Positions 6,207 to 63,192 are shown, counted from the stretch's first letter. The stretch is 64,000 nucleotides of DNA from Candidatus Omnitrophota bacterium (GCA_013202205.1 JABMSB010000031.1:310-64309); one strand, 5' to 3'. Made by a program: numbers and translations. Notes: a model not told the origin generated them from the letters alone.

Positions 6207-6210
6207 TACT

Positions 6211-7053: not shown

Positions 7054-7059
7054 TCCTAT

Positions 7060-29520: not shown

Positions 29521-30648
29521 TTATAGAAGCTTGAGGATAGCTTGGGCGGCGCGCATGGAGGCACCGGGTGAGCCGAGTTTTTTCTTCACAAGATTGAGCT
29601 CAGACTTCATCTGGATCTGTTTCATGGGATCATTTAGGATAGAGACGGTTTCGTAGGCTATTGAATCGGGTTTTGCATCACCTTGCAGGAATTCAGGTAC
29701 GATTCTTTTTCCGGCCACGACATTGACAAGGCCCACATAGGGCAGGGTTATGAGAAGACGGACCATAAGAGCTGTTATGGGTGACACCTTGTAGACGATA
29801 ACCATTGGCTTACCCATGACGGCCGTCTCAAGTGTCGAGCTTCCCGATGCCACAATGACGAAATCGGCCGCGGTGAGAGATTCGAGGTTCTTTTTGGAAG
29901 TGAGCTTGATGGGTAAGTCATATTTACGCAATTCTGACTCATAAAGCTCATCGGCCATGGACGACGGCTTAGATATGAGAAATTGTACATCCTGCCTTCT
30001 TTTGCAAACTCCTACAGCAGCTTCCAACATTATGGGGAGTATCTTCTCAACCTCTTTCCGGCGGGATCCGGGCAGGAGTAGTATAGTTTTTTTCTCTTTC
30101 GCAAGGCCCAGCATATCGAGTACTATCTCTTTTGGGCCGGTCGGTGTTATGGAATCCACAAAGGGGTGCCCTACCCACTCAACAGGCACTCCTTCTTTTT
30201 CATATAACTCCTTCTCAAAATCGAAGAAGACGACCATGAGATCTACAGTCTCGCGTATCGTCTTAATTCTTTTTTTACCCCATGCCCATATCTGAGGGCT
30301 TATGTAGTAGACGAGGGGGATATTGCGTTTTTTTACTTCCCTTGCAAGACGCATGTTGAATCCCGGATAGTCTATCAATATGACCATATCAGGCCTATCC
30401 GAATCGAGTGTCGAAACCAAGTCCTTAAAGATCTTTTTAAATTCACTATAGTGCTTAAGGACTTCTATGAATCCCACGACGGCAATCTCTGTCATGTCGC
30501 GATAGAGTTTGGCACCGGCTGTGGCCATCAATGGCCCACCGAGACCGGTGAAAGAGATATCCTGGCGCAAGGACTTCATATCCCTGATGAGGTTTGCGCC
30601 GTGCCTATCCCCGGAATGTTCTCCCGCAACTATAAGGATCTTCTTCAT
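29521..30648 (-). CDS. lpxB: Lipid-A-disaccharide synthase
   Basis: MKKILIVAGEHSGDRHGANL... GT19 family. 375 aa. Confidence 0.85.
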   Translation of the reverse strand: MKKILIVAGEHSGDRHGANLIRDMKSLRQDISFTGLGGPLMATAGAKLYRDMTEIAVVGFIEVLKHYSEFKKIFKDLVSTLDSDRPDMVILIDYPGFNMRLAREVKKRNIPLVYYISPQIWAWGKKRIKTIRETVDLMVVFFDFEKELYEKEGVPVEWVGHPFVDSITPTGPKEIVLDMLGLAKEKKTILLLPGSRRKEVEKILPIMLEAAVGVCKRRQDVQFLISKPSSMADELYESELRKYDLPIKLTSKKNLESLTAADFVIVASGSSTLETAVMGKPMVIVYKVSPITALMVRLLITLPYVGLVNVVAGKRIVPEFLQGDAKPDSIAYETVSILNDPMKQIQMKSELNLVKKKLGSPGASMRAAQAILKLL

Positions 30649-33495: not shown

Positions 33496-34632
33496 ATGAA
33501 AATTGGCATATTTTTTATATTCTCGGCCGTTCTTATCTCACTATCAGCACCCACGTATGCTGCGGAGCGTTTTACGCTGGGGCCATGGGATGTCCAGCCC
33601 TATATTACTACAGAGATGACATATAATGACAATATCTTTCAGCGGGAGAACGATGTGGATGGGGAGACGTATTTTACTACCACTCCCGGGGTCAGATTGG
33701 ATCTTCCATGGGATGAACATGCCGTTACGCTTGATTACAAGCTTAACATAGTCCATTTCCTGGAGATGTGGAATGAAGACCAGCAGCAGAATGACATATA
33801 TCTTTTGTATAATTTCGAGTTTAATAAGTTTTCCTTTAGGTTTTCAGACCGCTTTTATGAAGATTACGGTGTCCCGACAGGTTCGGAACGCCAGGATATA
33901 GACCCTTATTACGCCAATGTGGCAAACGTGAATTTCGGTATGGAGTTTAACCGTCTTATATTCGACATAGGATACACCAATACCATTTATGAATATCATC
34001 AAGTGGATAGTACTGGTAGTCAACAAGAAGACGAATTACGCATAACCGGATATGTGAGACCTTTTCCAAAGACGAAAATTTTATTTGAAACAAACCTAAC
34101 TCGCAAGAAATATGATAACAAAAACGATGGAAATGCCGATGCGCTTGAATTATATATTGGCGCCGACGGCAAGATAGCACCGAAGACAACAGGGATAATC
34201 AAACTCGGCTATCAGTGGTGGGACTATACAGAGTCGGGCAACTTTAAGGGGGACGGTGTATACGTCGATTTAAACCACAGATTCAATGATTATAACTGGC
34301 TTGATATGAATATCGAGCGCAGGGAAGATGCAAACCTTTATGCTGAAGAGAGTTATTATACTATAAGCAAAATTCTCTTAAGATATTCAAGGAAGATGAG
34401 CTGGCGCCTCACAGGATTTTTAGGCGGATATTATCAACTCGATGAATACCCGACAAGAGGGTCGCTTACGAGAGAAGATACCGTCTATAATGCCAATCTG
34501 GGTTTTAGTTACCAGTTTTGGGAAGATCTGAGATTCAACGCAGGATACGATTTTACAAAGAAGATATCAAATTCCACAAACGCAGATTATACGGCGAACA
34601 AGGTAACCTGGAAATATGACCTCCTCTTCTGA
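33496..34632 (+). CDS. Outer-membrane beta-barrel protein (EPS-locus associated), signal peptide, C-terminal Phe
   Basis: Signal peptide ending in AAE. Alternating amphipathic strands rich in Y/W/N. Terminal ...YDLLF. Confidence 0.6.
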   Translation: MKIGIFFIFSAVLISLSAPTYAAERFTLGPWDVQPYITTEMTYNDNIFQRENDVDGETYFTTTPGVRLDLPWDEHAVTLDYKLNIVHFLEMWNEDQQQNDIYLLYNFEFNKFSFRFSDRFYEDYGVPTGSERQDIDPYYANVANVNFGMEFNRLIFDIGYTNTIYEYHQVDSTGSQQEDELRITGYVRPFPKTKILFETNLTRKKYDNKNDGNADALELYIGADGKIAPKTTGIIKLGYQWWDYTESGNFKGDGVYVDLNHRFNDYNWLDMNIERREDANLYAEESYYTISKILLRYSRKMSWRLTGFLGGYYQLDEYPTRGSLTREDTVYNANLGFSYQFWEDLRFNAGYDFTKKISNSTNADYTANKVTWKYDLLF

Positions 34633-38379: not shown

Positions 38380-39645
38380 ATGAGAGGATATATCAAAAGC
38401 GCTTATTTTCTTTATAAAAAATATATACATAACTTTTCCTGGAGATATTTTGGATATTTTGCAAGAACATGTATAGCTTTTTTTATCTTTCTTATCGCCG
38501 CTAGACTTTTGACACCAGAGGCATTTGGAAAATATAATTACTTTATAGCTATAGCCTCTCTGCTGGCTATATTTGGAGATTTTGGAATAAGCACCTCTGT
38601 CAGCAAATATGTACCAGAGTATAGAATAAAGAACAGAGGAAAGATAAAGTCTATACTTTTTTCTTCATTAACAATTTGTTTTATTTTGTCTTTTTCTGTT
38701 TCGATATTTGTTTTGATTTTCGGGAAAGAGCTTTTTTCCGAGGACTACATATATATTTTATATACGATACCTCTAATATTTCTGATCAGCGGGGTTAGGG
38801 TTTTTGATGGATTTTATAGGGGTTCTGAAAGATTTAAAGAACTCGCCATCATTTCTTTGATTTCTGGTTTGGTTGGTTTGGGAAGTGCCTATTTCTTAAT
38901 CCTTCTTTACGGAGTTGCAGGAGCAATATTTACTCAAGTCTTATCTTATCTTGTACTTTTTACTGTGCTGACAAAATTTACAAAAGAAAGCTTCACGCCT
39001 TTTGATAAGAAAATAGCAAAAACAATTTCTAAATACGCCTTAGTTGTAGGTCTTTCAGGGTTAGCTTATTTTCTTTATACGCGTATTGATATTATAATTT
39101 TGGGATATTATGGATATACAATAGAGATCGGATATTATAGTATTATTGATAAATTTTTTCAATTTTTATTTATACCTTTTGTTTTATTTGGTCAGGTGAT
39201 TGCTCCCGATGTAACTAAATTGGTAACTCAAAAAAAATATCAAAAGGTTAAACAGCGTGGATTAAATATAATTTATTTATTCATTCTTGGAATATGTATC
39301 AGTATTTTTGTTTATTTTCTGGTGCCTCCAATAATCAAGAGCATACTCCCCGAATATTTTAAAAGAGATCTTTTGATGATTTTAAACGTTTTGCTTTTTT
39401 TGTTACCTTTTAAGATTTGTGGTGTGCTAATAGTCAACGGTTTTGTGGTGCCCTCAGGTTTAGCTAAAATAGTAACCGTCATTACAGGCATAGGCGGCAT
39501 CCTTAATGTCTTACTAGATTTTCTTTTTATAAAATGGTATGGGTTTATAGGAGTTTTCTATGTTACTGCGTTACTACATAGTTTAGCCATCATTTTTACA
39601 TATATTATATATTATAGAAGTATCTCAAAAAGGGCATTAGGGTAA
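38380..39645 (+). CDS. Polysaccharide flippase (Wzx / MOP superfamily), 12+ TM
   Basis: 421 aa. Entirely hydrophobic helices. AT-rich membrane-protein codon usage. Confidence 0.7.
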   Translation: MRGYIKSAYFLYKKYIHNFSWRYFGYFARTCIAFFIFLIAARLLTPEAFGKYNYFIAIASLLAIFGDFGISTSVSKYVPEYRIKNRGKIKSILFSSLTICFILSFSVSIFVLIFGKELFSEDYIYILYTIPLIFLISGVRVFDGFYRGSERFKELAIISLISGLVGLGSAYFLILLYGVAGAIFTQVLSYLVLFTVLTKFTKESFTPFDKKIAKTISKYALVVGLSGLAYFLYTRIDIIILGYYGYTIEIGYYSIIDKFFQFLFIPFVLFGQVIAPDVTKLVTQKKYQKVKQRGLNIIYLFILGICISIFVYFLVPPIIKSILPEYFKRDLLMILNVLLFLLPFKICGVLIVNGFVVPSGLAKIVTVITGIGGILNVLLDFLFIKWYGFIGVFYVTALLHSLAIIFTYIIYYRSISKRALG

Positions 39646-40367
39646 TGAAGCCAAGCAAAGTATATTCAAAGATTCGAAATAAGTTATTCAGAAAATTTAT
39701 TATTCTGCATTATTACCTTTATAGAGATGAGCTAAGGACGAAGATAAACCATGTGTTTCAGTATGATGATTTAGATATAGGGTTGTTTTTCGAAGAACAA
39801 GAAGAAGGTGCTTTGCCTGGGGATAAAAAATATAGCGCAGCCGACTATTATAAGTATATGGTTTCTCGATATATATTTTCTATCAGATATATAAAAAACA
39901 AGACTGTACTGGATTCAGGATGTGGTTTTGGTTGGGGATCTTATTTAGTCTGTAATTATCCCGAAAAGATAATTTCAATTGATTTAAATGAAAAGGCCTT
40001 AGATTTTGCAAAGAGCCATTGGGATGATAAAAAATTACATTTTTTAAAATGTTCTTTATTGAATATAGATTCCTTAAACGAGACCTTCGACGTTATTTTA
40101 GGAATGGAGATAATAGAACATCTATCTAGCAAGGATGGAGAGACATATTTATATCAGTGTTTCAGAAATTTAACAGATGGCGGAATTTTAATACTAAGCT
40201 CTTTCTTTCCAGACTTAAGAAAAGAATCAGAGAAGGCAGAAAAGAGGAATAAATTCCACCTAAAGATATTTACAAAACAGGAAATAAAAAAGCTGGCACA
40301 GCATGTGGGTTTTTCAAAAATCCAGTTTTTGGGTAACTTATTAGTAATATTAAAGAAAAGACCATAG
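39645..40367 (+). CDS. Class I SAM-dependent methyltransferase
   Basis: Motif I LDSGCGFGWGS. Motif post-I ISIDLN. Confidence 0.75.
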   Translation: MKPSKVYSKIRNKLFRKFIILHYYLYRDELRTKINHVFQYDDLDIGLFFEEQEEGALPGDKKYSAADYYKYMVSRYIFSIRYIKNKTVLDSGCGFGWGSYLVCNYPEKIISIDLNEKALDFAKSHWDDKKLHFLKCSLLNIDSLNETFDVILGMEIIEHLSSKDGETYLYQCFRNLTDGGILILSSFFPDLRKESEKAEKRNKFHLKIFTKQEIKKLAQHVGFSKIQFLGNLLVILKKRP

Positions 40368-40493: not shown

Positions 40494-41168
40494 ATGAGCA
40501 TAAAAACATCAAAGACTGTACATGAAGATGACTGGAGAAATATAAAGAAAGATTATACTTTTTTAAAAAAGAATAAAGACATTTCAGAAAGGATGGCGTT
40601 ATTAATTAATTTTTTTAAAAGAGTTAAACCTCGAAAGATGTTGGATATTGGGTGTGGTTCGGGCTATTTGGGGTATTTGATTAAGAGAATGGATATGGAT
40701 AGAGATTTAATAATTAAAGGTTTTGATATTTCCGAATATGCTATTAGCCAGATAACATCTTATGATAAAACATATTTATTAGATATCGATAAAAAAGATA
40801 TTCCCGAAGAGAGCGATTATTTCGATATGGTGGTTTGTGGCGAAGTGTTAGAACATATTTATGATGTTGACCATTGCTTGGATGAGATAAAAAGAGTTCT
40901 TAAACCAGGCGGTAAGGCTATTATTACAACTCCAAATTTCAGTTATTGGAAATATCGAATTGTTTGTCTTTTTGGTGGCATTCCAAGCATAACAAAAGAT
41001 CCCCGGCATATTCGCAACTTTAATCATAATTTTCTATTCAGCAAATGTTCTGGTAAAGATTTTGATGTTACATATTCTGTTAGAGAAAAGAAAGATCCTT
41101 TGACTAAAATATTGGGAATAATTTTTAGTAAAATGGTTGTATTAACTTTGACTAAACGAGAGAAATAA
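40494..41168 (+). CDS. Class I SAM-dependent methyltransferase
   Basis: Motif I LDIGCGSGYLG. VVCGEVLEHIYD. LKPGGKAIITTPN. Confidence 0.75.
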   Translation: MSIKTSKTVHEDDWRNIKKDYTFLKKNKDISERMALLINFFKRVKPRKMLDIGCGSGYLGYLIKRMDMDRDLIIKGFDISEYAISQITSYDKTYLLDIDKKDIPEESDYFDMVVCGEVLEHIYDVDHCLDEIKRVLKPGGKAIITTPNFSYWKYRIVCLFGGIPSITKDPRHIRNFNHNFLFSKCSGKDFDVTYSVREKKDPLTKILGIIFSKMVVLTLTKREK

Positions 41169-41287: not shown

Positions 41288-42685
41288 ATGAATAAAAAAA
41301 TATGTTTGGTCTACCCTAATTTAATGAAACTCCCCAAGTTTTTTAATAAAGTGACCAATATTCCACAGAGCTCTACCCTTCTTCCGCCTTTAGGATTATT
41401 ATATATAGCTTCAAACTCAAAATACAAAATTGATATAATTGATAATAGGATAGAGAAACTTGCTGAGTTTAAATTATATAGCAGATTAAAAATTTATGAT
41501 ATAGTAGGTTTTGGTGGAACAATATTTGAGGTTCAAGAGGCAAGAAATATTTCTATGCGGTTAATGAAAGAGGGTAAAATTACCATATATGGCGGGCCAA
41601 ATGCCACTGTCAACTGGGAACTTTATGTTGGAGATTTCTCAATCATTATCAGGGGAGAAGGCGAAAATATCTTTGATAAGATAATAGAAAATTATAAGTT
41701 CATAAGAAATATAGAACACTTAGGTTTTAAAGAAATTAGAGGTTCTCTCGTTAATTTGGCTATATTCAGAATAAAGAATCTGGATAGCTTAAAATTTCCA
41801 AATAGAACCTTGATTAAGCTTGAGAGCTATAATAGGATAGAGGAGAATTATTTACCAAACACATATCCGGTAGATACGATTTCAAGCAGCCGTGGATGCC
41901 CCTTTGATTGTTATTTTTGTTCTTCCCAACATATTTGGCAAAGAAGATACACATATAGAACGCCAGACAATATTGTTAGAGAAATTAAAGAATTAATGGA
42001 TGTGTTTGGCACCAGAGGAATATATTTTAGAGAAGATAATTTTACTTTTTCAAAAAAAAGAACAAAAGAATTTTGTAAAAAAATCAAGCCTCTTAGCGTT
42101 AAGTGGGTTTGTGAATCCAGAATAGATGCTATTGATAAATCCTTAGCTATGGAGATGGCCGAGTCTGGATGTAGAGGCATTTGGTTTGGTATAGAGTCCA
42201 CATCCAATCAATCGTTGCGCAAGATTAAGAAAGGAATAACGATAGAGCAAGCAAAAAAAACAATACTTTTATGCAAGAAATATGGGATAATCACGGGGGG
42301 AGGGTTTATGATTGGCTTTCCTTGGGAAGATATTGATGATATGAAAAGGACTTTTGTAGAAAGTAAAAAATTAGGATTAGACAACATTTTCTATAACAGG
42401 ATCTATGCATTTCCGCACTCCGAGATGTATGAAGATATCAGAAAGAAACATCTAAATAGCTGCGAATATAATAATATCATCATCCCCGATACTGAATATA
42501 TTTCCTCAAAAGATGTTACCGAGTTTTATTATAAATGTCAATATAATTGGAAAAAGAGATTAATAAAGATGTTTATTCCCGAGATGCATAGAACACATTT
42601 TAAAAAGAGACACCCAATCTTAACTATGCTGATAAAAAAAAATAGCACAAATATAAAGCACAAGAACCAAGGAACATCGGCATGA
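41288..42685 (+). CDS. B12-binding-domain radical SAM protein
   Basis: N-terminal B12-binding-like Rossmann domain. CxxxCxxC in SSSRGCPFDCYFCSS. 465 aa. Confidence 0.7.
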   Translation: MNKKICLVYPNLMKLPKFFNKVTNIPQSSTLLPPLGLLYIASNSKYKIDIIDNRIEKLAEFKLYSRLKIYDIVGFGGTIFEVQEARNISMRLMKEGKITIYGGPNATVNWELYVGDFSIIIRGEGENIFDKIIENYKFIRNIEHLGFKEIRGSLVNLAIFRIKNLDSLKFPNRTLIKLESYNRIEENYLPNTYPVDTISSSRGCPFDCYFCSSQHIWQRRYTYRTPDNIVREIKELMDVFGTRGIYFREDNFTFSKKRTKEFCKKIKPLSVKWVCESRIDAIDKSLAMEMAESGCRGIWFGIESTSNQSLRKIKKGITIEQAKKTILLCKKYGIITGGGFMIGFPWEDIDDMKRTFVESKKLGLDNIFYNRIYAFPHSEMYEDIRKKHLNSCEYNNIIIPDTEYISSKDVTEFYYKCQYNWKKRLIKMFIPEMHRTHFKKRHPILTMLIKKNSTNIKHKNQGTSA

Positions 42686-47505: not shown

Positions 47506-48852
47506 ATGGTGTTATTTTCTGATCTAAGAATTTTAGCAATAGTATTTGGTGGGTGTCTGTTGGTATTGTCATTTTTTAGACCCTGGCGGGGGTTATTGAT
47601 TTTTAGTGCCGCACTTTTTTATGAGGCGGCGATTGATATGAAATTATTCGTTATAGAATCGTCACATTTGTATAGATCATGGGACGCCCTTGGGAGCTTT
47701 AAGCTTTTTGGCATGGCCATTGTTATTGGCTGGTTTTTGCAGGCCTTGATTAAGAAGAGAGTTAAGTTGCCGCCGCCCAGCCGAATCTGGTTGCTTATCG
47801 GCATTTTTATGATTATCGTGATTTCAGGGATGTTCTCTATATATAAAGCCAACACTTTAGTATATATTTATTCTTTTTTGGGCGTGGTCGGGATATATTT
47901 TATGATCTGTGATTTATGTTTTGAGCATAAACGAATCGAGCAACTATTGTTGGTTGTGGCGATAGCCGCTTTAATAAACGCACTCATTGCAATAGTTCAA
48001 TATATATTTAAGATAGATGTCCCATGGGATCTGGGCTACAAGTTCGGACAATATAGAGTGGTTGGCGGAATGTCTGATCCAAATTATTTTGGATATCAAA
48101 TTCTCACAGTCTTTCCTATCATCTTCTTTTTCTTTTATAGGACCAGGTCTAAACTGAAAAAAATCGTATTGTTTGCTATAGAGATGATTATGGTTACGTC
48201 AATTGTACTTACATTTTCAAGAGCAGCTTTTATTACATTGTGTGTAGTCTTATTCTTTTTAATGATAATCTTCATAAAACACAAGAAACTTTCTTACGTC
48301 ATAGTTATTATTTTGATGACCTCGCTATTGGGAGTAGTTATTTTTGCTAACCCCAAATATTCCGAAAGATTATCAACCCTGTTTGGGGTCGCGGAGATAG
48401 GCCAGTATGGTGAAACTTCGGAAAGAACTCTTAAAACTAGGGAAGATATTTTCTTCACCGGAACGAAAATGTTTCTCGATCATTTCTGGCTTGGCGTGGG
48501 GCCTAATAACTTTCCCATATACTTAGAATCATATGCACACAGAAGTCTATTAATATCAAGAGGAAGAGGAGCACACAATTCTTTTTTGGGCGTATCTGCC
48601 GAACTTGGCATATTCGGCCTGTGCTTATTTTTACTTTGGATTCTGTTTATATTAAAAGGATTGCGTTTTACACGCAAGAGAGTTCCAAATGATCCTTCTT
48701 CTGCGTTATTATCCGAAGTACTACAGATAAGCATTTTTGCCAATCTGTTTATGTTGACAACGTTAGGTACTTCTTTTAATGTGAAATTATTATGGATATG
48801 GTTTGGTTTAGCCGAAGCCATGAGACAGGTATCTATTTCCGGTAGGACATAA
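47506..48852 (+). CDS. Second O-antigen ligase/polymerase-like (Wzy_C) membrane protein
   Basis: Multi-TM. GAHNSFLGVSAELGIFG motif. Confidence 0.65.
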   Translation: MVLFSDLRILAIVFGGCLLVLSFFRPWRGLLIFSAALFYEAAIDMKLFVIESSHLYRSWDALGSFKLFGMAIVIGWFLQALIKKRVKLPPPSRIWLLIGIFMIIVISGMFSIYKANTLVYIYSFLGVVGIYFMICDLCFEHKRIEQLLLVVAIAALINALIAIVQYIFKIDVPWDLGYKFGQYRVVGGMSDPNYFGYQILTVFPIIFFFFYRTRSKLKKIVLFAIEMIMVTSIVLTFSRAAFITLCVVLFFLMIIFIKHKKLSYVIVIILMTSLLGVVIFANPKYSERLSTLFGVAEIGQYGETSERTLKTREDIFFTGTKMFLDHFWLGVGPNNFPIYLESYAHRSLLISRGRGAHNSFLGVSAELGIFGLCLFLLWILFILKGLRFTRKRVPNDPSSALLSEVLQISIFANLFMLTTLGTSFNVKLLWIWFGLAEAMRQVSISGRT

Positions 48853-50226: not shown

Positions 50227-51354
50227 ATGGGGTTTATAAAAGACGCCTACACCATTTTTAGAATAGGCGCGCGCACCGTGTCGAATACCTATCTTAAATC
50301 TAGCAGGCCAAGCCATGTCTCTATAGCTGTAACCAACCGATGCAACTCGCGATGTATTTACTGCGAGACATATCTGTGTGATTTTTCGAAGGAGCTCACC
50401 ACCCAACAGATGATCTCTATTATTGACGAGATCAGTAGGGACGGAAGTTGTTATATAACGCTTACCGGCGGTGAGCCGTTTATGCGGCAGGATATTTTCG
50501 ACATCATAAAACACTGCTATAAGCGCAACCTCATTGTTAATATACCGACAAATGGCCTTAAAATACATAATTTTAACGCAGGCCAAATAAACACAATCGT
50601 AAAATGCGTAAGAAATATTCAACTTTCCATCGATTCGGCCGATACAAAGGAGAACGACTTTATACGAGGCGTAGATGGATCGTTGGATTTGGCAATCCAG
50701 GGGGTCAAGAGACTCAAAGATGGGGGGTTCGATAAAATCGGAATATTAACTGTTATAAGCAGATATAATTATAAAAAGCTAAAGGGCCTTTTGTATCTTA
50801 CAAGAGACCTTGGCCTTAAAAGGATACGATTTCAACCTGTGGGTATCAATTCTAACTATCCCAGCATAGCACCGCTCAAGGACAAAAGGGAAGTTTTAAT
50901 AAGAGGGAAGCAGATAGACGAGCTCAGGGACACCCTATCAGAGTATATAAGGCTAGAAAATAGATTAGGTTTAACTACTAACTTAAAATTTTTAAAGACA
51001 TGGATCGGTCCGTACTTCAAGTTTATCGAAAGCGAAAAGTTTTTTATGAAAGAGGTTAACAGATGCTTCAGATGCATTTATCCAGCTACGGCATTATTCA
51101 TAGACAGCAATGGGAGGCTGCAACCGTGCCAATTCTTGAACAACGTTGGAAGCGGTCTCAAAGAAGTTGTTTATAATTGGCGACATAATAAAAAATTAAA
51201 TGAGATAAGAAAGAGTCTAAAGAAGGGCAATTTTTTTCAGGAATGTCGAAGGTGCATGTGTACGTTTGAGTTCAGCTCTACCTATCAGCCATTTAGTAAA
51301 TCACAGCCGCCTTTGTTAATCTCAAAGGTCAGGCAAAAGATCAAGGATTCTTAA
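50227..51354 (+). CDS. Radical SAM protein with C-terminal SPASM-type Cys cluster
   Basis: CNSRCIYCE (CxxxCxxC). C-terminal CFRC...C...C...CRRCMC. Confidence 0.7.
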   Translation: MGFIKDAYTIFRIGARTVSNTYLKSSRPSHVSIAVTNRCNSRCIYCETYLCDFSKELTTQQMISIIDEISRDGSCYITLTGGEPFMRQDIFDIIKHCYKRNLIVNIPTNGLKIHNFNAGQINTIVKCVRNIQLSIDSADTKENDFIRGVDGSLDLAIQGVKRLKDGGFDKIGILTVISRYNYKKLKGLLYLTRDLGLKRIRFQPVGINSNYPSIAPLKDKREVLIRGKQIDELRDTLSEYIRLENRLGLTTNLKFLKTWIGPYFKFIESEKFFMKEVNRCFRCIYPATALFIDSNGRLQPCQFLNNVGSGLKEVVYNWRHNKKLNEIRKSLKKGNFFQECRRCMCTFEFSSTYQPFSKSQPPLLISKVRQKIKDS

Positions 51355-52259
51355 TGTCCCGAAGACAAAAACCATACATTATTACTAAATATAACAGGAT
51401 TGTTCCGGCGCCACCTCCCACATTGCAAGAACAGATTATCCTCAGAAGAAAGCTATTCCAGACAGAGAGACATGTTTCTATTCGGAAGATGGCAGAGGGA
51501 ACTTGTGAGCATCTCTCTCGGTATAAGTTTGCTCTTCAATACGCTAAAGGCAGATCTGTATTAGATGCCGGCTGTGGTTCTGGATATGGTGCACATTTTC
51601 TGAAGTTGGAAGGTGCCTCGATGGTGTATGGTATCGACATATCTGCTAGGGCTATAGGTTACGCAAGACAGAATTTTTTGGCCGAGGGCTTAGATTTTGA
51701 ATGTACCGACCTAACCAAGACGCTAAATCTGAAAGATAGATATTTTGATGTGATTATTTCTTTCGAGATCATAGAACACATAAAAGATACAGCTGCTTAC
51801 TTGTCAAATTTAGCGAGATTGCTGAAAGGGGATGGATATTGCATATTTTCAACCCCAAACCGGGATATTAACTCTCCCGGATGGTCTATTCCACACAACT
51901 CCTATCATGTGAAAGAATATAATGCCAGTGAGTTTCAAGATCTTCTAAATGGATATTTTTCAACGTCGGTTTTATTTGGCCAGTACCCCTCGAGGCGAAT
52001 AATAGATTTACGGAAGAGAAAACTCGGATTGCGCAAGATGGCATATGACGGTAAATTGGCTCATATTTATCAATCCATAGCACCTATTTTGCCTAACAGG
52101 TTGAGAAGAAACTTGGTTGATGTGGCAGGGGCTATATATTTGATGTTCAAGAAACCATCAAGTGCAGGACTTGGAGAGAAGCTTGATTTTTCCGATTTTC
52201 TTTTTATTGAGGACGATTTTAAAGATGCCGAACATCTGTTAGCCATTTGTAGAATATAA
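51354..52259 (+). CDS. Class I SAM-dependent methyltransferase
   Basis: LDAGCGSGYGA. ISFEIIEH. Confidence 0.75.
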   Translation: MSRRQKPYIITKYNRIVPAPPPTLQEQIILRRKLFQTERHVSIRKMAEGTCEHLSRYKFALQYAKGRSVLDAGCGSGYGAHFLKLEGASMVYGIDISARAIGYARQNFLAEGLDFECTDLTKTLNLKDRYFDVIISFEIIEHIKDTAAYLSNLARLLKGDGYCIFSTPNRDINSPGWSIPHNSYHVKEYNASEFQDLLNGYFSTSVLFGQYPSRRIIDLRKRKLGLRKMAYDGKLAHIYQSIAPILPNRLRRNLVDVAGAIYLMFKKPSSAGLGEKLDFSDFLFIEDDFKDAEHLLAICRI

Positions 52260-52408: not shown

Positions 52409-53455
52409 ATGAGCAGGATTGCCCTTGCCTTATGGATGCAAAAAATTTCTGAACATTTTTTGGGGAAATCGTACGCCATATGCGCTCGATTGCTTCCCCT
52501 CTCGAAAACTATCCACCGTTTCAATTCAAAGCCGACTGAGCTGCATCTGGAATTTACAAATACCTGTAATTGCAGTTGTATTTTTTGTGGCTATCAATAT
52601 CAGAAGCGCAAAAAAATAATTATGTCCGAAGAAATATTAATAAAAGCAATCTCTGATTTTAGTAATATAGGTGGTGGAGATGTTATAGTTACCCCTATAG
52701 TAGGAGAAGCGTTGGTTGATCCTGATTTTATTAAAAAGATCAAGATGATTAGGGCTTATGCGAGTATCAAGAAGATTTTACTTACCACAAACGCTACGCT
52801 TATTCACCACTATGGCATAGATGACATATTAACAACAGGTTTGACAGATATTTACATAAGTACGGCGGGGTTTGATAAAGAAACATACACGAAACTTTAT
52901 CGCGCGCCCTACTATGACTTAATGCGGGACAATACTATTGCCCTTCTTTCCCGAAACGAAGAACTTGGAAAGCCAGTAAATATAACTATACTTATCCGAG
53001 CAGGCAGGTCTCTTTCCGAGGTTTTAGGCACCGTAGACGCACAGCGCGTTCTGAGATTTAAGCCAAAGATAGATTTTGCGTATTATTTTCACGATTTCGG
53101 AGGTAGGATAAAAAAGGAGGATCTCTGGCCAGGGGCAAAGATAAGAGATCCGGGCAAAAAGAAAGAACCTTGTTTTAGCTTGTACAATGGCCCAGTTGTT
53201 CTGCCGGATGGCGAGGTTTGGATGTGTGACTGCGCCGCCGCTATGGATTCTGGTACCAATCTTTTTATAGGCGATATTAAAAAAGAGACCCTTATGAACA
53301 TATGGCAAGGCAAGCTACGCAGAAACCTTATCGCACAATTCTATAAGCAAGGAAAGCTAAATCCAACTTGTTTTAAGTGTACTGCATACCAAAATCTTGA
53401 TCGCTATCGCCATTTTAATCCGTATTTAAAATCTGGCTGGAACTTTTTTAAATGA
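52409..53455 (+). CDS. Second radical SAM/SPASM-type protein
   Basis: TNTCNCSCIFCGY. C-terminal C..C...C cluster (CFSL...CDCAA...CFKC). Confidence 0.65.
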   Translation: MSRIALALWMQKISEHFLGKSYAICARLLPLSKTIHRFNSKPTELHLEFTNTCNCSCIFCGYQYQKRKKIIMSEEILIKAISDFSNIGGGDVIVTPIVGEALVDPDFIKKIKMIRAYASIKKILLTTNATLIHHYGIDDILTTGLTDIYISTAGFDKETYTKLYRAPYYDLMRDNTIALLSRNEELGKPVNITILIRAGRSLSEVLGTVDAQRVLRFKPKIDFAYYFHDFGGRIKKEDLWPGAKIRDPGKKKEPCFSLYNGPVVLPDGEVWMCDCAAAMDSGTNLFIGDIKKETLMNIWQGKLRRNLIAQFYKQGKLNPTCFKCTAYQNLDRYRHFNPYLKSGWNFFK

Positions 53456-55128
53456 AAATTTTATTATTAGGCAACACAACAGGCTATCTCGATGAAGGGA
53501 TGAAAAACATCACCCACAATCTCAGAAGGGTGTTGGCAAAATTTCATGAAGTTAAGGTTATCCATCCTAGGCAAGCCATCAACCTGGAGACGTTAAGAAG
53601 CATACATCTGTTTAATCCCGATATAATCCATTATATGCAAGGCCCGACCATAAGAAGCTTTCTTTTAGTTAAATTGCTTTCCGTGCTTAATCCTGATGCT
53701 GCGACGGTAATCTCTGCTCCTCGTCCTAGCATTTCAAAAATCCATCACTGGTTTTTGTCCGCACTTAAAGTCGACCTGATTCTATTGCAATCTAAAAGAT
53801 ATAAAGATGTCTTTAAAAAATTAGCACTATATGTCGAATTTTTTTATCCAGGGATAGATGCAGAGAAGTTCAGGCCCGTGCCCTCTTCAACAAAAAACTC
53901 TTTACGTCTAAAATATAACTTACCAAAAGATAAATACATCGTCTTACATGTTGGCCAAGTCACATCTGTCAGAAATGTTAATACCCTTGGACAGATCCAG
54001 AAAAAACGACATAAAGATGTGCAGGTACTTATTGTGGCAGCATCAACCATCAAGCCGGATCAGCGTATTGTAAGGCGGCTTAAGAATTGTGGCTGCATTA
54101 TACGGGAAGGATATCACGAGGAACTTCAGGAGATATTCCAACTTGCCGATTGTTATATATTTCCAGGGATTAAAAGAACCCCTGCCATAGAAGTTCCTTT
54201 GACTATTCTGGAGGCCGCAGCATGTAATCTGCCAATCATATGCGGTTATTTCGGTGGCCTCCCAGACATATTCAAAGAGGAAGATGGATTTTTCTTTGTC
54301 AAAAGCGAGGTTGAAATCAGACAAAAGCTGGATCTCCTGATGGAAAATGGAAGTATTGATATAAAGAACAGAGAAAAGATAAACAAGTTTACGTGGTTCA
54401 AGGTATCCGCGCGACTTATGAAGTTATATGAGGAGTGTTTGAAAATACATCGGCTACGCAGACAGAAGAGATTGCCCAGGTTGATATGTTTTATAGGGGT
54501 AGACGGTTCGGGCAAGACGGCCATAGCAAAACAATTAACACATTCTCCTATAGCAGGTGTAAGATATAATTATGTGTGGGGTAGCGCACAACCGATTTTT
54601 ATGAGGCCATTGAGAAAATTAGTGCATACAATTATACTAAACAAAGTAGATATGTTTAAGGATTATCAGGAATATGATAAGACTAAGAAAAGGGTCGCTA
54701 AGAGATTTTTGATATTTTCCAAATTTTACAGTTTCATCTTCGTGATAGATTATTTTTTATGGATGCTATTTTGCGTGAGGATTCCGCTTGCGTTAGGTAA
54801 AAACATAATTTGCGATAGATACATCTTCGATATGGCCATTAATATCCATTTTTTATATGCGAACTTATTTTATAATGTTGACGATGCGATAAAGTTCTTT
54901 CTAAAGATATTTCCCACTCCTGAGATGGTTTATCTAATAGACCTTCCTGAAGAAATAGCATTTTCACGCAAAGATGATATACCTTCTATCGAATATTTAA
55001 GGCAACGCAGGATAGTATACAGGGAGGTCGCAAAAAGGTATGGGGCGAAGATTATCGAAGGGACAAAACCATTACGCGTTCTTGCGGATATCGTACGTAA
55101 CGATATCATAAAAACATATATGCGGTGA
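53452..55128 (+). CDS. GT4 glycosyltransferase fused to a C-terminal P-loop dTMP-kinase-like domain with intervening hydrophobic segment
   Basis: GT4 motif LTILEAAACNLPIICGYFGGLPDIF. P-loop ICFIGVDGSGKT. Tmk-like ICDRYIFD and the lid region. Confidence 0.6.
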   Translation: MKILLLGNTTGYLDEGMKNITHNLRRVLAKFHEVKVIHPRQAINLETLRSIHLFNPDIIHYMQGPTIRSFLLVKLLSVLNPDAATVISAPRPSISKIHHWFLSALKVDLILLQSKRYKDVFKKLALYVEFFYPGIDAEKFRPVPSSTKNSLRLKYNLPKDKYIVLHVGQVTSVRNVNTLGQIQKKRHKDVQVLIVAASTIKPDQRIVRRLKNCGCIIREGYHEELQEIFQLADCYIFPGIKRTPAIEVPLTILEAAACNLPIICGYFGGLPDIFKEEDGFFFVKSEVEIRQKLDLLMENGSIDIKNREKINKFTWFKVSARLMKLYEECLKIHRLRRQKRLPRLICFIGVDGSGKTAIAKQLTHSPIAGVRYNYVWGSAQPIFMRPLRKLVHTIILNKVDMFKDYQEYDKTKKRVAKRFLIFSKFYSFIFVIDYFLWMLFCVRIPLALGKNIICDRYIFDMAINIHFLYANLFYNVDDAIKFFLKIFPTPEMVYLIDLPEEIAFSRKDDIPSIEYLRQRRIVYREVAKRYGAKIIEGTKPLRVLADIVRNDIIKTYMR

Positions 55129-55132
55129 TTTA

Positions 55133-56287
55133 ATGGAAAACCATTCGGCCAAAAGAACCTTTCTTAATAGCTACAACCAGCGCAGGCTGAAGATAGGTCT
55201 TTTGTGCGATAAAATAGTGAGATTCTTTTTTCACCCTCCGACGCCAAAGAAACCTCCCAAAGTTTTCTCTAAGATATTAGTTATTCAATCTCACCTTATC
55301 GGCGATCTTGTTATGACCACGCCCATACTGCAGACCCTTAGAAAAGCTTATCCCGACGCACGCATATATCTTTTGGCAAACAAATTCGCTTCAGATTTAT
55401 TAAAAGGAGCCTATTTTGTCGATAAGATCTATACCATTAGATTTCCCTGGTCCACTTATGATTATAGCTGGGGAAACCTGAGAAGCATTTACTCAGTCGT
55501 CAGGTCTTTGCGGAAAGAAAATATAGATCTTGCGATAGACGCCAAAATAGATGCGAGAAATGCATTTTTGATGTTTCTGATTGGTGCAAAAAGGCGTCTC
55601 GGCTACGATATAACAGGTGGAGGATCTTTTTTGACCGACACGCCTGATTTCCCCGCAAATTCGGAAAATATGACCGAAATTAGACTGTCTCTACTAAAAC
55701 ATCTAGGCATAGAGATTAGCGACAAGGCACCAGTTATACCCCTAAGCAAAGAAGATATGACTGTTGCAGAGAACTTTTTGGAAAGTAGACATTTGAATCG
55801 TAATAACCTTGTGGGGATTCATCCTGGAGCAAGCTATAAGGCAAGGATATGGCTTCCTGAAAATTTGGCTGTTGTTATAAGAGGGCTTAAAAAAGAGGGA
55901 GTAGACGTCATTTTGATAAAAGGCCCCAAAGACGAGAGAATAGTCACACAGATACAGGGGATGCTGAAGGAGCCCATAGAGATTTTTGAGGGCACACTTA
56001 AAGGTGTTACCGCCTTACTTTGTTACTGTCGGTTGCTCATATGTATGGATAGCGCGATTCTGCAATTGTCCGCCGCCACAAAAACGCCGACACTGGCAAT
56101 ATATGGATCCACATCACCGCTGAGGACTAAACCACTTACTTCAAACATAGTGATTAGCTATCATAAAGAGTTTGACTGTCAGCCATGCGACTATAACAAA
56201 CCTTTTTGTACAGATAAAAAATGTATGTCAGCAATAACGCCAGAGGAAGTGCTGCGAAAAGCACGGCAAATGCTTAGAAGCAACTAG
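55133..56287 (+). CDS. Family 9 glycosyltransferase (heptosyltransferase-like)
   Basis: ILVIQSHLIGDLVMTTPILQTLRKAYPDARIYLLA. Confidence 0.75.
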   Translation: MENHSAKRTFLNSYNQRRLKIGLLCDKIVRFFFHPPTPKKPPKVFSKILVIQSHLIGDLVMTTPILQTLRKAYPDARIYLLANKFASDLLKGAYFVDKIYTIRFPWSTYDYSWGNLRSIYSVVRSLRKENIDLAIDAKIDARNAFLMFLIGAKRRLGYDITGGGSFLTDTPDFPANSENMTEIRLSLLKHLGIEISDKAPVIPLSKEDMTVAENFLESRHLNRNNLVGIHPGASYKARIWLPENLAVVIRGLKKEGVDVILIKGPKDERIVTQIQGMLKEPIEIFEGTLKGVTALLCYCRLLICMDSAILQLSAATKTPTLAIYGSTSPLRTKPLTSNIVISYHKEFDCQPCDYNKPFCTDKKCMSAITPEEVLRKARQMLRSN

Positions 56288-57866: not shown

Positions 57867-58700
57867 ATGATAAACGTTCTAACTTTTGATACAGAAGAGT
57901 GGTTTCAATCGCATGAGCTGGGGATAGAACCACGCAATTGGCAGCATTTGGAATGCAGGGTTTGCGAGAGCGTGAAGAGGATCCTCGCTATCTTAAACGA
58001 GCGCGGTATCAAAGCGACATTTTTTGTTGTTGGATGGATTGCGCAGCGGTATCCAGAATTGGTGAGGGAGATAGTTAATGCGGGTCACGAGGTAGGCAGC
58101 CATGGCTATGCTCATGAGATAGTATATGAACAGACGCCTGAGGATTTTGAAGAAGATCTTAAAAAATCGCTGAATATATTAAAAGACATAACAGGCAAAG
58201 ATGTAATAGGCTATCGAGCGCCATATTATTCTATCACAAAAGATTCTTTGTGGGCCTTGGATATACTACAGAGGTATGGCCTGAAATACGATTCGAGTAT
58301 CTATCCTATTAGCTTAAGGATGTTTACCAAAGGAGGTATTAAGGGATATATATCGAAGCCATGTATAATAAAAGAAGGTTTATTCGAATTTCCTATGCCA
58401 GTTACAGAATTATGCAATTTCAAATTACCGGTGGCCACAGGCATCTATTTTCGTCTATTTCCTTATCGATTTACCAGGTGGGCAATAGAAAAGGCTAATA
58501 AAAGAGGCCTATTCGTAACCGTTAATCTTCACCCCTGGGAATTTGATCCTCTTCAGCCCAGGGTTAAGATGTCATTACCCTATAGCATAAAGCGTTATAC
58601 CAACTTGCATAAGACGGAACAAAGATTTCGCAGGTTGCTTGACGATTTCGACTTTACCAGTTGTAAACACAAGCTCAAGGAGATTTTTGAAGAAAGATGA
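57867..58700 (+). CDS. Polysaccharide deacetylase family protein (EPS-locus subtype)
   Basis: LTFDTEEWF. GHEVGSHGYAHE. 277 aa. Confidence 0.7.
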   Translation: MINVLTFDTEEWFQSHELGIEPRNWQHLECRVCESVKRILAILNERGIKATFFVVGWIAQRYPELVREIVNAGHEVGSHGYAHEIVYEQTPEDFEEDLKKSLNILKDITGKDVIGYRAPYYSITKDSLWALDILQRYGLKYDSSIYPISLRMFTKGGIKGYISKPCIIKEGLFEFPMPVTELCNFKLPVATGIYFRLFPYRFTRWAIEKANKRGLFVTVNLHPWEFDPLQPRVKMSLPYSIKRYTNLHKTEQRFRRLLDDFDFTSCKHKLKEIFEER

Positions 58701-59922
58701 AGATAGCCTTTTTTAATCGCTCATTCCATCCTGATGTTGAAGCAGTGGGTTTGCTTTTAACGGAACTATGCGAAGAACTCACTAAGCGATACAACATCTC
58801 TACTACCGTTGTTGCGGGGTTACCCTATTATTCTGAAAATTCTCAATATCATAAGAAATTCCCTTTTGCGCGCGAACATTATCAAGGTACAAAGATTTTA
58901 AGGGTTTGGTCTCTTAGTTTGGACAAAAGCAAAACTTTTTGCAGATTCGCAAATTATGTCAGTTTTACCATTCTTTCTGTATTGGCAGGTTTTCGATTGG
59001 GGAAGCAAGATATCATAATTGCTCACACCAACCCTCCGACGGTTCCGATAGTTGCGTTTCTATTTGCTAAATTATATAGAGCAAAATTTATCTATTGGTG
59101 CAAAGAGATATTTCCTGAAACAGCAAATTTGCTCAAAGATTATCACAATAGACATATGGATAATATCTTGAATCGAGTTAATCGTTTCCTTTTTAAGAGA
59201 GCGGATAAGATAGTGGTGATTGGAGAGATGATGAAAAAACGTCTAGTGGAAGAGAAGGGTGCACCCGAAGAAAAGATAACAATAATACGCGACTGGGCGC
59301 GGTGTGACCGCATATATCCTGTGAAGGAAAGCAACCCTTTTAAGCTTAAATATGGCCTCGACGGAAAATTAGTAATAATGCATTCGGGAAATATAGGATT
59401 GGCGCAAGAGGTGGAAACGGTGGTAGAGGTGGCCAAGGCTTTCAATGATAGAAAAGATATAGTTTTTTTAATTGTAGGCGACGGGGCCAGGAAAAGGAAT
59501 TACAGAAAAAAGCCGAATCTTATGGTTTGACCAACGTGACCTTTTTGCCATTTCAACCAACTGAGACATTAAAATTTTCTCTTTCGGCAGCGGACATACA
59601 TATCGTTTCTTTAAAAAAAGGTTTTTCGGGTTATTTGGTACCCAGCAAGATATACAATATTCTGGCAACTGGCTGCGCCCTTATAGCCGCGGGGGATGCA
59701 GAATGTGAAATGGTAGATATGGTGCAAAAGTACGAATGTGGTTTTACGTGCCGCCCTGGAGATATTGAAGCTATAGTTTCTTTTATAGAAAAGTGCTATA
59801 ATAATCGCTCATTTCTTAAGCGGATTAGTGAAAATGCACGCAACACAGCGCTTCACTACGATTTTGAAAAGCCTCTTGATACAGCACATAAATTATTTTT
59901 GGAACTAACGCAACAAGGATAA
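58697..59922 (+). pseudogene. GT4 glycosyltransferase disrupted by a single-nucleotide frameshift near 59491-59497 (ORFs 58697-59530 and 59527-59922)
   Basis: Frame 2 reads ...LIVGDGARKRNYRKKPNLMV*. Frame 1 continues ...ELQKKAESYGLTNVTFLPFQ. Adding one base in the GAAAAGG tract restores a full-length GT4. Confidence 0.6.
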
Positions 59923-62022: not shown

Positions 62023-63192
62023 ATGAGGGATGTTGCTATTATCGGGGCGGGGCCCATAGGGAACTACGTGGGATATCTGCTTGCTACGGCCGGACTGGAT
62101 GTTGTGCTTCTTGAAGAACATGCTGTGGTAGGGGAGCCGGCGCACTGTACCGGGATTATAGGGATGGATGCCTTTGAGCAATTTGACCTGCCGCGCAACG
62201 CTGTGGTGGGCGAGCTTAAGAAGGTCAAGATTATCTCTCCCCATAGAAAGATCTTTGATTATGATTTTGATACATCGCAGGCATTAGTTGTGGATCGCTC
62301 AAAGTTCGATAGAGGGATAGCCCAGATGGCTATCCTCAACGGTGCACAGCTGATGATGGATGCCACGGCAACGGGCATTGAGGTGTTGAAGGATCGTGTC
62401 GATATTAAAATCAGAAAAGATGGCAGGATCAAGCGGATAGCGGCTAAGATGGCCGTGATATCGACAGGACTGCATTACGGTCTTCAAGAGCGGCTCGGGA
62501 TGGGCAAGCCGCGGGATTTTTTGAAATGTGCCCAGGTTGAAACGGATGTTATGGACCGCAATGATTACGTTGAGGTCTATTTCGGCAAGAGGTTGGCGCC
62601 GGGCTCATTCGCCTGGGTCGTCCCCATTGAGACGGGTAATGGGCCTAGGGCTCGAATAGGATTAAGTAGTACGCAGTCGGCATCTGCGTATCTTGATAAA
62701 TTTCTTGTTTCGCTTAATTCCAGGGTGTTGAATGCCGAACATCTAGATGTTAAACGCAGCGCCATACCGCTTACGCCCATCGCCAGGACATTTCATAATA
62801 GAGTACTTGCCGTCGGCGATGCGGCCGGGGTCGTGAAGCCGAGCACAGGAGGAGGTGTATTTTATGGCCTGATATGTGCCGGCATAGCTGCTGAAGTTGT
62901 AAAGAAGGCCTTCAAGATAGGGCGGTTTGATCAAAGGGTTTTGAGTGAATATGAGAGGCAGTGGAAGAAGAGGTTGGGGCTTGAATTGAAGATAGGATAC
63001 TATTTTCGGAGAGTCGCTTCTAAATTTACAGATGCGCAACTCAATGATTTGTTTGAGGTTATAACTTCCGATGAGGTGTTGCCGCTTTTAAGGCGTAAAG
63101 CTAAGTTCGATTGGCATAAGGACTTAATGCTTTCCATAGTAAAGCAGGCAGCGGTGAGAAATCTCTTTTTTGGCAGTTTAATGAAGATGTAA
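62023..63192 (+). CDS. FAD-dependent oxidoreductase of the geranylgeranyl-reductase family
   Basis: AIIGAGPIGNYVGYLLA dinucleotide fold. LAVGDAAGVVKPSTGGG. 389 aa. Confidence 0.65.
   Translation: MRDVAIIGAGPIGNYVGYLLATAGLDVVLLEEHAVVGEPAHCTGIIGMDAFEQFDLPRNAVVGELKKVKIISPHRKIFDYDFDTSQALVVDRSKFDRGIAQMAILNGAQLMMDATATGIEVLKDRVDIKIRKDGRIKRIAAKMAVISTGLHYGLQERLGMGKPRDFLKCAQVETDVMDRNDYVEVYFGKRLAPGSFAWVVPIETGNGPRARIGLSSTQSASAYLDKFLVSLNSRVLNAEHLDVKRSAIPLTPIARTFHNRVLAVGDAAGVVKPSTGGGVFYGLICAGIAAEVVKKAFKIGRFDQRVLSEYERQWKKRLGLELKIGYYFRRVASKFTDAQLNDLFEVITSDEVLPLLRRKAKFDWHKDLMLSIVKQAAVRNLFFGSLMKM

Follow-up and report, generated by a model that had tools for sequence, protein, structure and literature searches.

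What would a kinase of the thymidylate kinase (TMK) fold be doing on the same polypeptide as a glycosyltransferase (GT), in the middle of a surface polysaccharide locus? The question is raised by one gene in a stretch of 64,000 nucleotides from a Candidatus Omnitrophota bacterium (GCA_013202205.1, JABMSB010000031.1:310-64309), to which we refer as the window. The product, NQT46460.1, is named simply 'glycosyltransferase' in a Candidatus Omnitrophica metagenome-assembled genome (MAG). A first-pass annotation, made from the sequence alone, had read it as a GT4 enzyme fused to a thymidylate-kinase-like P-loop domain and did not recognise the fusion as described. Our full-text literature searches agree with it on the latter point, as no paper describing a GT-kinase fusion was found. 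The analysis below shows that the kinase half descends from a thymidylate kinase, with its acceptor-binding region rebuilt, and that the fusion is a minority form of a three-part cassette in which the GT and the kinase are usually encoded by adjacent genes.

The fusion is a real gene

A stop or a frameshift showing two separate genes had been named as what would refute the fusion, and none was found: the gene is a single uninterrupted open reading frame (ORF). Its ATG shares the tetranucleotide ATGA with the stop codon of the upstream radical-SAM/SPASM gene, and its own stop codon lies 5 nt from the start of the next gene, so that the fusion gene sits within an operon. The protein sequence was found exactly in three sources (NCBI, JGI and Logan), on a contig of 64,553 bp. 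Another JGI contig, 4.5 kb long, carries the same 558-residue fusion with a single substitution, A479T.

The fusion was also looked for in other genomes, as had been proposed. Among the top 150 matches of an exhaustive phmmer search that covered 1.84 billion cluster representatives, eight clusters have the two domains in the same order at 28-45% identity, and about 135 are GT-only proteins of ~330 residues. Full-length fusion homologues include P0002, P0007 (from a Desulfotalea MAG), P0008 and P0010, which are 33-38% identical to the window protein, and the linkers are short and mostly basic in all ten fusion homologues that were inspected. The reverse order also exists: the kinase-like domain is N-terminal to a GT4 domain in P0064, P0067 and P0073, and to a GT2 domain in P0081. 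On account of the second-contig allele and the diverged fusion homologues we reject a misassembly or a frameshift as the origin of the fusion, which is a real gene and not an artefact.

The N-terminal part is of the GT4 type, as the first-pass annotation had it. PF00534 (Glycos_transf_1) matches residues 151-311 with 49.6 bits against a cut-off of 26.4, PF13692 (Glyco_trans_1_4) scores 46.7 bits against 27, and the closest sequences of solved structure are PimB' (3oka, E 1.1e-5) and BshA (5d00, E 7e-5), both GT4 enzymes. To call the domain canonical was slightly generous, since no Pfam model of a GT4 N-domain matches the first 150 residues and the position of the EX7E motif reads E-X6-E (E247...E254). 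Those 150 residues, though lacking a Pfam match, are conserved inside a subfamily of ~330-residue proteins. A custom profile of this subfamily matches residues 1-331 at an E value of 1.9e-128 and gives no match to the remaining GT4s of the window. On the strength of these profile comparisons we assign the GT half to a distinct, short GT subfamily; the separate Methanofollis GT is 33% identical to it.

The kinase half

The GVDGSGKT, CDRYIFD and lid-like motifs that had been read in the C-terminal part are all present, and the profile E values together with AlphaFold2 and Foldseek place the assignment far beyond chance. The Pfam search was less favorable here than for the GT half. PF02223 (Thymidylate_kin) aligns to residues 446-542 only, with 23.7 bits (E 4.4e-5) against a cut-off of 27, although profile and structure comparisons put the fold itself beyond doubt. 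TIGR00041, the NCBIfam equivalog model of the deoxythymidine monophosphate (dTMP) kinase, gives 23-27 bits against 83.25 and matches the P-loop alone. As the kinase half falls below both cut-offs, and the first-pass annotation had itself named a sub-threshold score as grounds for refutation, it is not a dTMP kinase in the annotation sense. It has about 70 standalone homologues of roughly 220 residues (28-46% identity, several of them archaeal), and many of these are named 'dTMP kinase' or 'thymidylate kinase' in databases.

An alignment of 68 family sequences of ~220 residues defines the profile of what we call the glycan-locus TMK-fold kinase family, and residues 342-556 of the window protein match this profile over its full length at an E value of 1.4e-75. 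The P-loop G/D/G/G/K, D455, R456, D460, P499 and R506 are invariant in the alignment, and all ten are present in the window copy; C454, Y457, K507, D509, P511 and S512 are nearly invariant. The predicted catalytic residues (the P-loop Lys, the DR motif and the Arg/Lys of the lid) are all kept. Models of other kinases that act on glycans or glycolipids, namely those of LpxK (PF02606), of WaaP/Kdo kinase (PF06293) and of the WbdD kinase, gave no Pfam or NCBIfam match to the domain at E values of up to 0.1-1.

Searched against the PDB, the family profile finds solved thymidylate kinases at an E value of 5.7e-22, in the pieces 6-35 and 104-216, and its positions 36-103, which correspond to the dTMP-holding region of TMK, do not align to any TMK. 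An AlphaFold2 model of the domain built with the same alignment has a predicted local distance difference test (pLDDT) score of 91.8 and a predicted template modeling (pTM) score of 0.87. All of its top Foldseek matches in the PDB are TMKs, with template modeling (TM) scores of 0.55-0.70 and 15-20% identity. The hhalign comparison with E. coli Tmk (95% probability) aligns D455-R456 with D99-R100 and shows the lid to be 8 residues shorter than the E. coli LID. In a region where the alignment is of low confidence, hhalign also places a 6-residue insertion in the helix that bears F74 and R78 in E. coli, the hydrophobic F435 opposite R78, and N464/I465 (D/L in the family consensus) opposite Y108/Q109. 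Of the dTMP-binding residues considered (F74, R78, T105, Y108 and Q109 in E. coli), the counterparts of R78, Y108 and Q109 are thus not conserved. It follows from the profile, Foldseek and hhalign comparisons that the fold and the phosphoryl-transfer machinery are TMK-like and that the dTMP site is not kept, with a weak alignment in the acceptor region.

A hydrophobic segment had been placed between the two domains, and this did not hold. The linker is short and basic, and the hydrophobic stretch (residues 420-447) belongs to the kinase domain itself, where it follows the P-loop and precedes the DRY strand. According to the AlphaFold2 model and hhalign, this helix is the counterpart of a buried core or dimer helix of the TMK fold; it falls in what in TMKs is the binding region for the phosphate acceptor, and contains the family-conserved D433-Y434. 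The helix of the window protein has a mean hydropathy of 1.64 compared to a family median of 0.93, and a Kyte-Doolittle maximum of 1.95. Only 16 of 67 family members reach a transmembrane-like score, so a membrane-spanning role is not a family feature. A transmembrane or inter-domain segment was considered and ruled out, as the segment is inside the kinase domain, is modeled as a core helix and lacks strong hydrophobicity in most of the family.

A three-part cassette and its possible role

P0003, the closest of the GT-only homologues (52% identity), is encoded upstream of a separate but overlapping kinase-like gene of 236 residues, after which come a ~365-residue protein of unknown function and a GT9. 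In Methanofollis fontis and on two metagenomic or MAG contigs, a GT of 325-336 residues directly precedes each standalone kinase-like gene, which is then followed by a 503-residue Phosphodiest protein or a ~350-residue protein of unknown function. A census of loci with custom profiles extends this picture. Among close members (profile E < 1e-40; 38 loci) the cognate GT is fused in 2 loci and directly upstream in 25, i.e. in 27 of 38, and a third partner is directly downstream in 24 of 38 (an NPP-like protein in 15, the ~360-residue protein in 9). In the 47 loci with distant members, mostly of Acidobacteriota, the cognate GT and the partner are mostly absent (3 loci and 2 loci, respectively). 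In a scan where each species was represented by one genome, at least 287 relatives came to light, in Chloroflexota/Dehalococcoidia, Thermodesulfobacteriota, Brocadiaceae, Patescibacteria, Acidobacteriota, methanogens, Bathyarchaeia and Asgard archaea.

The cassette is widespread in the surface-sugar (polysaccharide, glycoprotein) loci of anaerobic bacteria and archaea and is unstudied: literature searches on the fusion, COG3379 and PF14907 found no functional study of it. The two halves exist as a conserved adjacent pair, and fusions of the pair have arisen repeatedly and in either order; this strongly suggests that the halves are functionally coupled. Comparative genomics is thus in agreement with the earlier proposal that transfer and phosphorylation are coupled, as far as the coupling of the halves is concerned; that the phosphorylated target is a sugar or a lipid-linked intermediate, we infer.

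The cassette also appears to be present in a cultured methanogen. The strain-specific genes of Methanothermobacter wolfeii SIV6 include MWSIV6_0726 ('glycosyltransferase'), MWSIV6_0729 ('alkaline phosphatase') and MWSIV6_0732 (a glycosyltransferase), and a 'thymidylate kinase' gene is listed among the strain-specific GTs, the next locus tag being the 'alkaline phosphatase'; all of these genes are transcribed (PMC7022856, Table 3). Since the 'thymidylate kinase' gene is strain-specific in SIV6, the kinase gene is accessory, and it is annotated as an enzyme of DNA synthesis.

The distant Acidobacteriota subfamily (L051-L089, ~25% identity) has neither the GT nor the NPP-like partner. Its neighbors are STAS-domain, ECF-sigma, hexapeptide-transferase, GH71/GH99-like and 551-residue GT4 genes. 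It probably represents a different system, and we set these relatives aside as clues to the substrate on account of their different gene context.

The third partner comes in two kinds. In the window it is the NPP-like protein encoded two genes downstream of the fusion gene, which shares 42% identity along its whole length with the protein directly downstream of the Methanofollis kinase-like gene. The folds nearest to its AlphaFold2 model (pLDDT 91) are ENPP6, ENPP1/3, venom phosphodiesterase, Xanthomonas NPP and phosphonoacetate hydrolase (PhnA), at TM scores of about 0.5, and the model places the protein in that branch of the alkaline-phosphatase superfamily which handles phosphodiesters and pyrophosphates. 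All positions of the Asp/Ser/Asp-His/His set (metal and nucleophile) are invariant, and no signal-peptide-like sequence was seen when the N-terminus was read by eye. The alternative partners of ~360 residues are homologous to each other, one of them with a sub-threshold match to NTP_transf_5 (26.7 bits against 31.2), and have no homologue in the window. PDB sequence searches with the NPP-like partner and with the NTP_transf_5 domain gave no matches.

The kinase-like domain is found C-terminal to NTP_transf_5 in P0075 and in the Dehalococcoidales loci L026, L035 and L052. In the latter three (L026 6936-8735, L035 6945-8723 and L052 6969-8720; Dehalococcoidales/other Chloroflexota), the fusions are about 590 residues long, their PF14907 (NTP_transf_5) match is above threshold, and they are preceded by a cognate short GT and followed by another GT4. 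In a family of phosphonate clusters, a 'thymidylate kinase' and a PF14907 protein flank phosphoenolpyruvate (PEP) mutase (PMC8942020). A phosphonate link was considered for the present locus and dropped, as the window contains no PEP mutase or decarboxylase; matches of the B12 radical-SAM protein to P-methyltransferase models are far under threshold.

We are highly confident of three points taken together: the anatomy of the protein, the cassette, and that the kinase half is not the cell's dTMP kinase. What the kinase acts on is less certain. In the mechanism that we favor, the GT domain would work on the cytoplasmic side of the membrane and transfer a sugar onto a glycolipid or a lipid-linked repeat unit, as its family membership and the locus context suggest. 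The kinase domain, with its conserved catalytic residues, would then use ATP to phosphorylate the product of the GT or possibly its acceptor, and the third enzyme would either turn the phosphate into a phosphodiester-linked decoration or remove it after use. We put the probability that the kinase phosphorylates the glycan or glycolipid product of the GT, and that the third enzyme processes this phosphate, at a little under one half. Several observations weigh against it. At several probable acceptor-site positions (R378S, E380Q, Q437W, K441C, T461M and D464N) the window copy deviates from the consensus of its family, so its specificity or activity may differ from that of the family. Many hydroxyl kinases of this fold have their catalytic base at the end of strand 2, where the family has no conserved acidic residue. 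The retained DR motif fits a phosphate-bearing acceptor equally well, and the alignment of the acceptor region is of low confidence. Furthermore, fusions of a kinase with a nucleotidyltransferase are typical of donor-activation pathways and not of glycan tailoring, and the acceptor could be a small molecule instead of a glycan.

Donor activation is indeed the main rival, albeit a somewhat unlikely one. Here the kinase would phosphorylate a free sugar or other small building block, a partner of the nucleotidyltransferase fold would make the donor linked to a nucleoside diphosphate (NDP), and the GT would transfer it; in the NPP-type cassettes the second step would go via a covalent nucleotidyl-enzyme. 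Such a pathway resembles Fkp, AmgK-MurU and LicA-LicC-LicD. The kinase-NTP_transf_5 fusions of Dehalococcoidales and P0075 have the classic architecture of salvage and activation enzymes, and both alternative third partners come from families that handle nucleotide phosphodiester or pyrophosphate bonds. However, no anomeric sugar kinase of the TMK fold is known, and a donor-synthesis kinase fused directly to several GT families in either order would be unusual. NPP-type enzymes are hydrolases, not synthases, and it is an NPP-type partner that the window has, with no nucleotidyltransferase in the locus. The pairing of 'thymidylate kinase' and PF14907 beside PEP mutase (PMC8942020) hints at the activation of a small molecule, but PEP mutase is not in the window.

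The remaining explanations fare worse. The domain may act at the nucleotide level, on a nucleoside monophosphate (NMP) or a related phosphate monoester, for example by converting the NMP released by a phospho-sugar transferase to NDP, thus relieving product inhibition or recycling nucleotides locally. This would fit its descent from TMK, the invariant DR motif (in NMP kinases, its Arg holds the phosphate of the acceptor in place), the R-x-E-P-like motif found after strand 2 in about two-thirds of the family, and the nucleotide pyrophosphatases among the relatives of the NPP-like partner. We nevertheless find it quite unlikely: the positions that recognise base and sugar in TMK are not conserved, longer hydrophobic helices replace the NMP-binding region, the window copy has lost R-x-E-P (S378, Q380), cells already possess general NMP kinases, and Glycos_transf_1 enzymes release NDP, not NMP. 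Distinctly improbable is a kinase for the carrier lipid of the adjacent GT, with polyprenol or polyprenyl phosphate bound by the hydrophobic helix. The very hydrophobic helix of 28 residues in the acceptor region of the window protein, the geranylgeranyl-reductase-family and WecA-like genes of the same locus and the precedent of LpxK, a P-loop kinase that acts on lipids at the membrane surface, speak for it. Yet strong hydrophobicity is not a family trait, the helix corresponds to a buried one in TMK, known polyprenol kinases are integral membrane proteins, and an NPP-like or nucleotidyltransferase-like partner would be left unexplained. Finally, we give almost no credence to an authentic dTMP kinase joined to the GT by frameshift, misassembly or neutral fusion, or to its variant, a non-catalytic ATP-binding regulatory domain. 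Standalone relatives do carry the name 'dTMP kinase', the frameshifted GT4 at 59527 on the same contig shows that indels occur in the assembly, and a single indel could fuse the split genes, which overlap or abut. Against this stand the second contig, the eight diverged fusion clusters, scores far under the dTMP-kinase equivalog threshold, and a consistent location in glycan loci and not in nucleotide or replication contexts; a dead domain would not be expected to keep all catalytic residues invariant.

Returning to phosphorylation of the GT product, we extend it, more tentatively, to the family as a whole. The TMK-fold family would be a class of glycan or glycolipid kinases not recognised before, now annotated as dTMP kinases, which together with the short GT and a phosphodiester-handling partner installs phosphate or phosphodiester-linked decorations on surface glycans. 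Anaerobic bacteria (Omnitrophota, Thermodesulfobacteriota, Chloroflexota and Brocadiaceae) and archaea (methanogens, Bathyarchaeia and Asgard) would share the cassette through horizontal transfer. As the cassette is present in cultured methanogens (Methanothermobacter wolfeii SIV6 and Methanofollis fontis), the hypothesis is directly testable. A TMK-derived enzyme tied to GTs would be a new enzyme class in glycan tailoring and would suggest that poorly studied anaerobes and archaea have phosphate-containing surface glycans which have so far gone unrecognised. Moreover, hundreds of 'dTMP kinase / thymidylate kinase' entries in glycan loci are probably misnamed and distort reconstructions of nucleotide synthesis in MAGs.

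The surrounding locus and known systems

The first 1-33 kb of the window contain housekeeping and lipid A genes (HisG, FtsH-like, ClpX, GlmU, PrsA, DnaB, BamA, LpxD, LpxC-FabZ, LpxA, LpxI and LpxB), and a Wzx/Wzy-type polysaccharide locus stretches from about 33.5 kb to beyond 63 kb. The latter encodes an outer-membrane barrel, Wza, Wzc, Wzx, two Wzy-like proteins, GT2, GT4 and GT9 enzymes, three radical-SAM enzymes, three methyltransferases, an XrtA-system deacetylase, a WecA-like transferase and a geranylgeranyl-reductase-family protein (Table 1). The guanine-plus-cytosine content, about 48% in the housekeeping part, falls to 31-42% in the polysaccharide locus (~38000-62000), which would fit a glycan island that is hypervariable or exchanged horizontally. 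The GT9 gene next to the fusion gene has homologues near the cassette in L001 and L004-L006, and is a partner in the closest relatives only; its matches to the NCBIfam heptosyltransferase II/III models are under their cut-offs.

Other features of the locus are as follows. Because the deacetylase scores above its equivalog cut-off and the barrel has weak matches to PEP-CTERM-system models, the locus looks associated with PEP-CTERM/exosortase. The geranylgeranyl-reductase-family flavoprotein is encoded just after the WecA-like initiating transferase and an epimerase, and in the related locus L001 an FAD enzyme also adjoins the initiating transferase; the polyprenyl carrier lipid may be partly saturated. 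The radical-SAM enzymes (two radical-SAM/SPASM and one B12-binding) and the S-adenosylmethionine (SAM) methyltransferases suggest unusual C-methylation or another radical modification of sugars, and B12 radical-SAM genes recur in some related loci (L001, L008 and L009). The first of the two Wzy_C proteins carries a long C-terminal TPR region. One GT4 gene is frameshifted, with its halves in different frames, and is either a pseudogene or the result of an indel error in the MAG assembly. In the housekeeping part, the LpxC-FabZ fusion stands in the row LpxD, LpxC-FabZ, LpxA, LpxI, followed by LpxB on the other strand; the transketolase is split into two genes, between which lie an FtsH-like protease and an ORF without a family match. 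A large repeat protein is found at the start of the window, and an ATPase gene separates the lipid A genes from the polysaccharide locus.

Table 1. Positions of the fusion gene, its parts and other features within the window.
Feature	Position	Strand	Basis or remark
Whole fusion gene NQT46460.1	53452..55128	+	ORF listing; 558 aa plus stop
GT4-type glycosyltransferase domain, aa 1-331	53452..54444	+	Pfam, custom subfamily profile
Inter-domain linker IHRLRRQKRL, aa 332-341	54445..54474	+	Direct sequence reading
TMK-fold P-loop kinase-like domain, aa 342-556	54475..55119	+	Family profile, AlphaFold2/Foldseek, hhalign
Walker A / P-loop GVDGSGKT, aa 349-356	54496..54519	+	Family alignment, coordinates verified
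Long hydrophobic helix within kinase domain, aa 420-447	54709..54792	+	AlphaFold2 helix H86-113 of domain model
CDRYIFD, aa 454-460: DR(Y) catalytic motif plus invariant D460	54811..54831	+	Alignment
Shortened lid SRKDDIPS, aa 505-512	54964..54987	+	Alignment
GT9 (heptosyltransferase-like) glycosyltransferase	55133..56287	+	PF01075 107 bits
NPP-like alkaline-phosphatase-superfamily protein, 502 aa	56324..57832	+	PF01663 105 bits
Polysaccharide deacetylase	57867-58700	+	TIGR03006 (XrtA system) 296.6 vs cut-off 276.2
Frameshifted GT4 gene, whole	58697-59922	+	
Frameshifted GT4, N-terminal half	58697-59530	+	Glyco_transf_4 domain
Frameshifted GT4, C-terminal half	59527-59922	+	WcaI-like sequence, other frame
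Geranylgeranyl-reductase-family flavoprotein	62023-63192	+	TIGR02032 193.5 bits vs 158.8
Outer-membrane barrel	33496-34632	+	Weak PEP-CTERM-system matches
Radical-SAM enzyme	41288-42685	+	
Radical-SAM enzyme	50227-51354	+	
Radical-SAM enzyme	52409-53455	+	
SAM methyltransferase	39645-40367		
SAM methyltransferase	40494-41168		
SAM methyltransferase	51354-52259		
Wzy_C (O-antigen ligase/polymerase-like) protein, 838 aa	43602-46118	+	
Wzy_C (O-antigen ligase/polymerase-like) protein	47506-48852	+	
AAA_14/DUF4143 ATPase	28292-29500	+	
LpxB	29521-30648		Outside polysaccharide locus
LpxC-FabZ fusion, 483 aa	24152-25603	+	
Split transketolase, whole region	6187-10661	+	
Transketolase, N-terminal gene	6187-7053	+	
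FtsH-like AAA/M41 protease, 541 aa	7060-8685		
ORF of 342 aa	8686-9714		No family match
Transketolase, C-terminal gene	9714-10661	+	
Big_9/cadherin-like repeat protein	135-2039	+	

What would be new here is a kinase that is coupled to glycan assembly, has the thymidylate-kinase fold and belongs to a conserved, uncharacterised three-part cassette, for which we found no publication; this is a plausible but unproven interpretation. To our knowledge, the kinases that act during glycan assembly are few, and the known ones have other folds (protein-kinase-like in WaaP and WbdD, and that of LpxK). The nearest relative by descent is Tmk (EC 2.7.4.9), with which the kinase half shares the fold, profile homology, a type-II-like P-loop GxDGxGKT, the DR(Y) motif and a basic lid. 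It differs from Tmk in scoring below the curated cut-offs, in a subdomain at the place of the dTMP-binding one that does not align, is about 25 residues longer and contains the long hydrophobic helix, in its shorter lid, and in that the residues contacting thymine and deoxyribose are not conserved. Its genes, unlike tmk, lie in glycan loci, are fused or adjacent to GTs, and in M. wolfeii are accessory.

In terms of logic, a parallel is found in lipid A synthesis, where the GT-B glycosyltransferase LpxB acts before LpxK, a P-loop kinase that phosphorylates the sugar just added. In both cases a GT-B enzyme and a soluble, membrane-peripheral P-loop kinase would act consecutively on a lipid-linked saccharide. 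However, the present kinase has no match to PF02606, LpxB belongs to GT19 and not to GT4, and LpxB and LpxK are separate proteins with known substrates; the window has its own LpxB outside the polysaccharide locus. A similar parallel can be drawn with WbdD, the chain terminator of E. coli O9a, whose kinase and methyltransferase domains jointly make a methyl-phosphate cap, and with the lipopolysaccharide core kinases WaaP and WaaY, which work with GT9 heptosyltransferases. These kinases phosphorylate a sugar of a growing lipid-linked glycan, and SAM methyltransferases and a GT9 adjoin the fusion gene here as well, but their fold is protein-kinase-like and not that of TMK, no homology was detected, and WbdD serves an ABC-transporter pathway whereas the present locus is of the Wzx/Wzy type.

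Precedents also exist for the third partner and for the fusion itself. Bcs3 of Haemophilus influenzae b, Fkp and HldE each carry out consecutive steps with a single polypeptide that combines a transferase and an enzyme of phosphate chemistry, be it a phosphatase, a kinase or a nucleotidyltransferase, although their domain families are different and none has a TMK-fold kinase. In the cluster of the lasso peptide pseudomycoidin, PsmK installs a phosphate, to which PsmN, a member of an uncharacterised nucleotidyltransferase family, attaches hexoses (PMC6993621). The substrate there is a peptide, PsmK is HPr-kinase-like, and the window has an NPP-like partner instead; nevertheless, the two-step logic is the same as that proposed here for the kinase and its NTP_transf_5-like partner.

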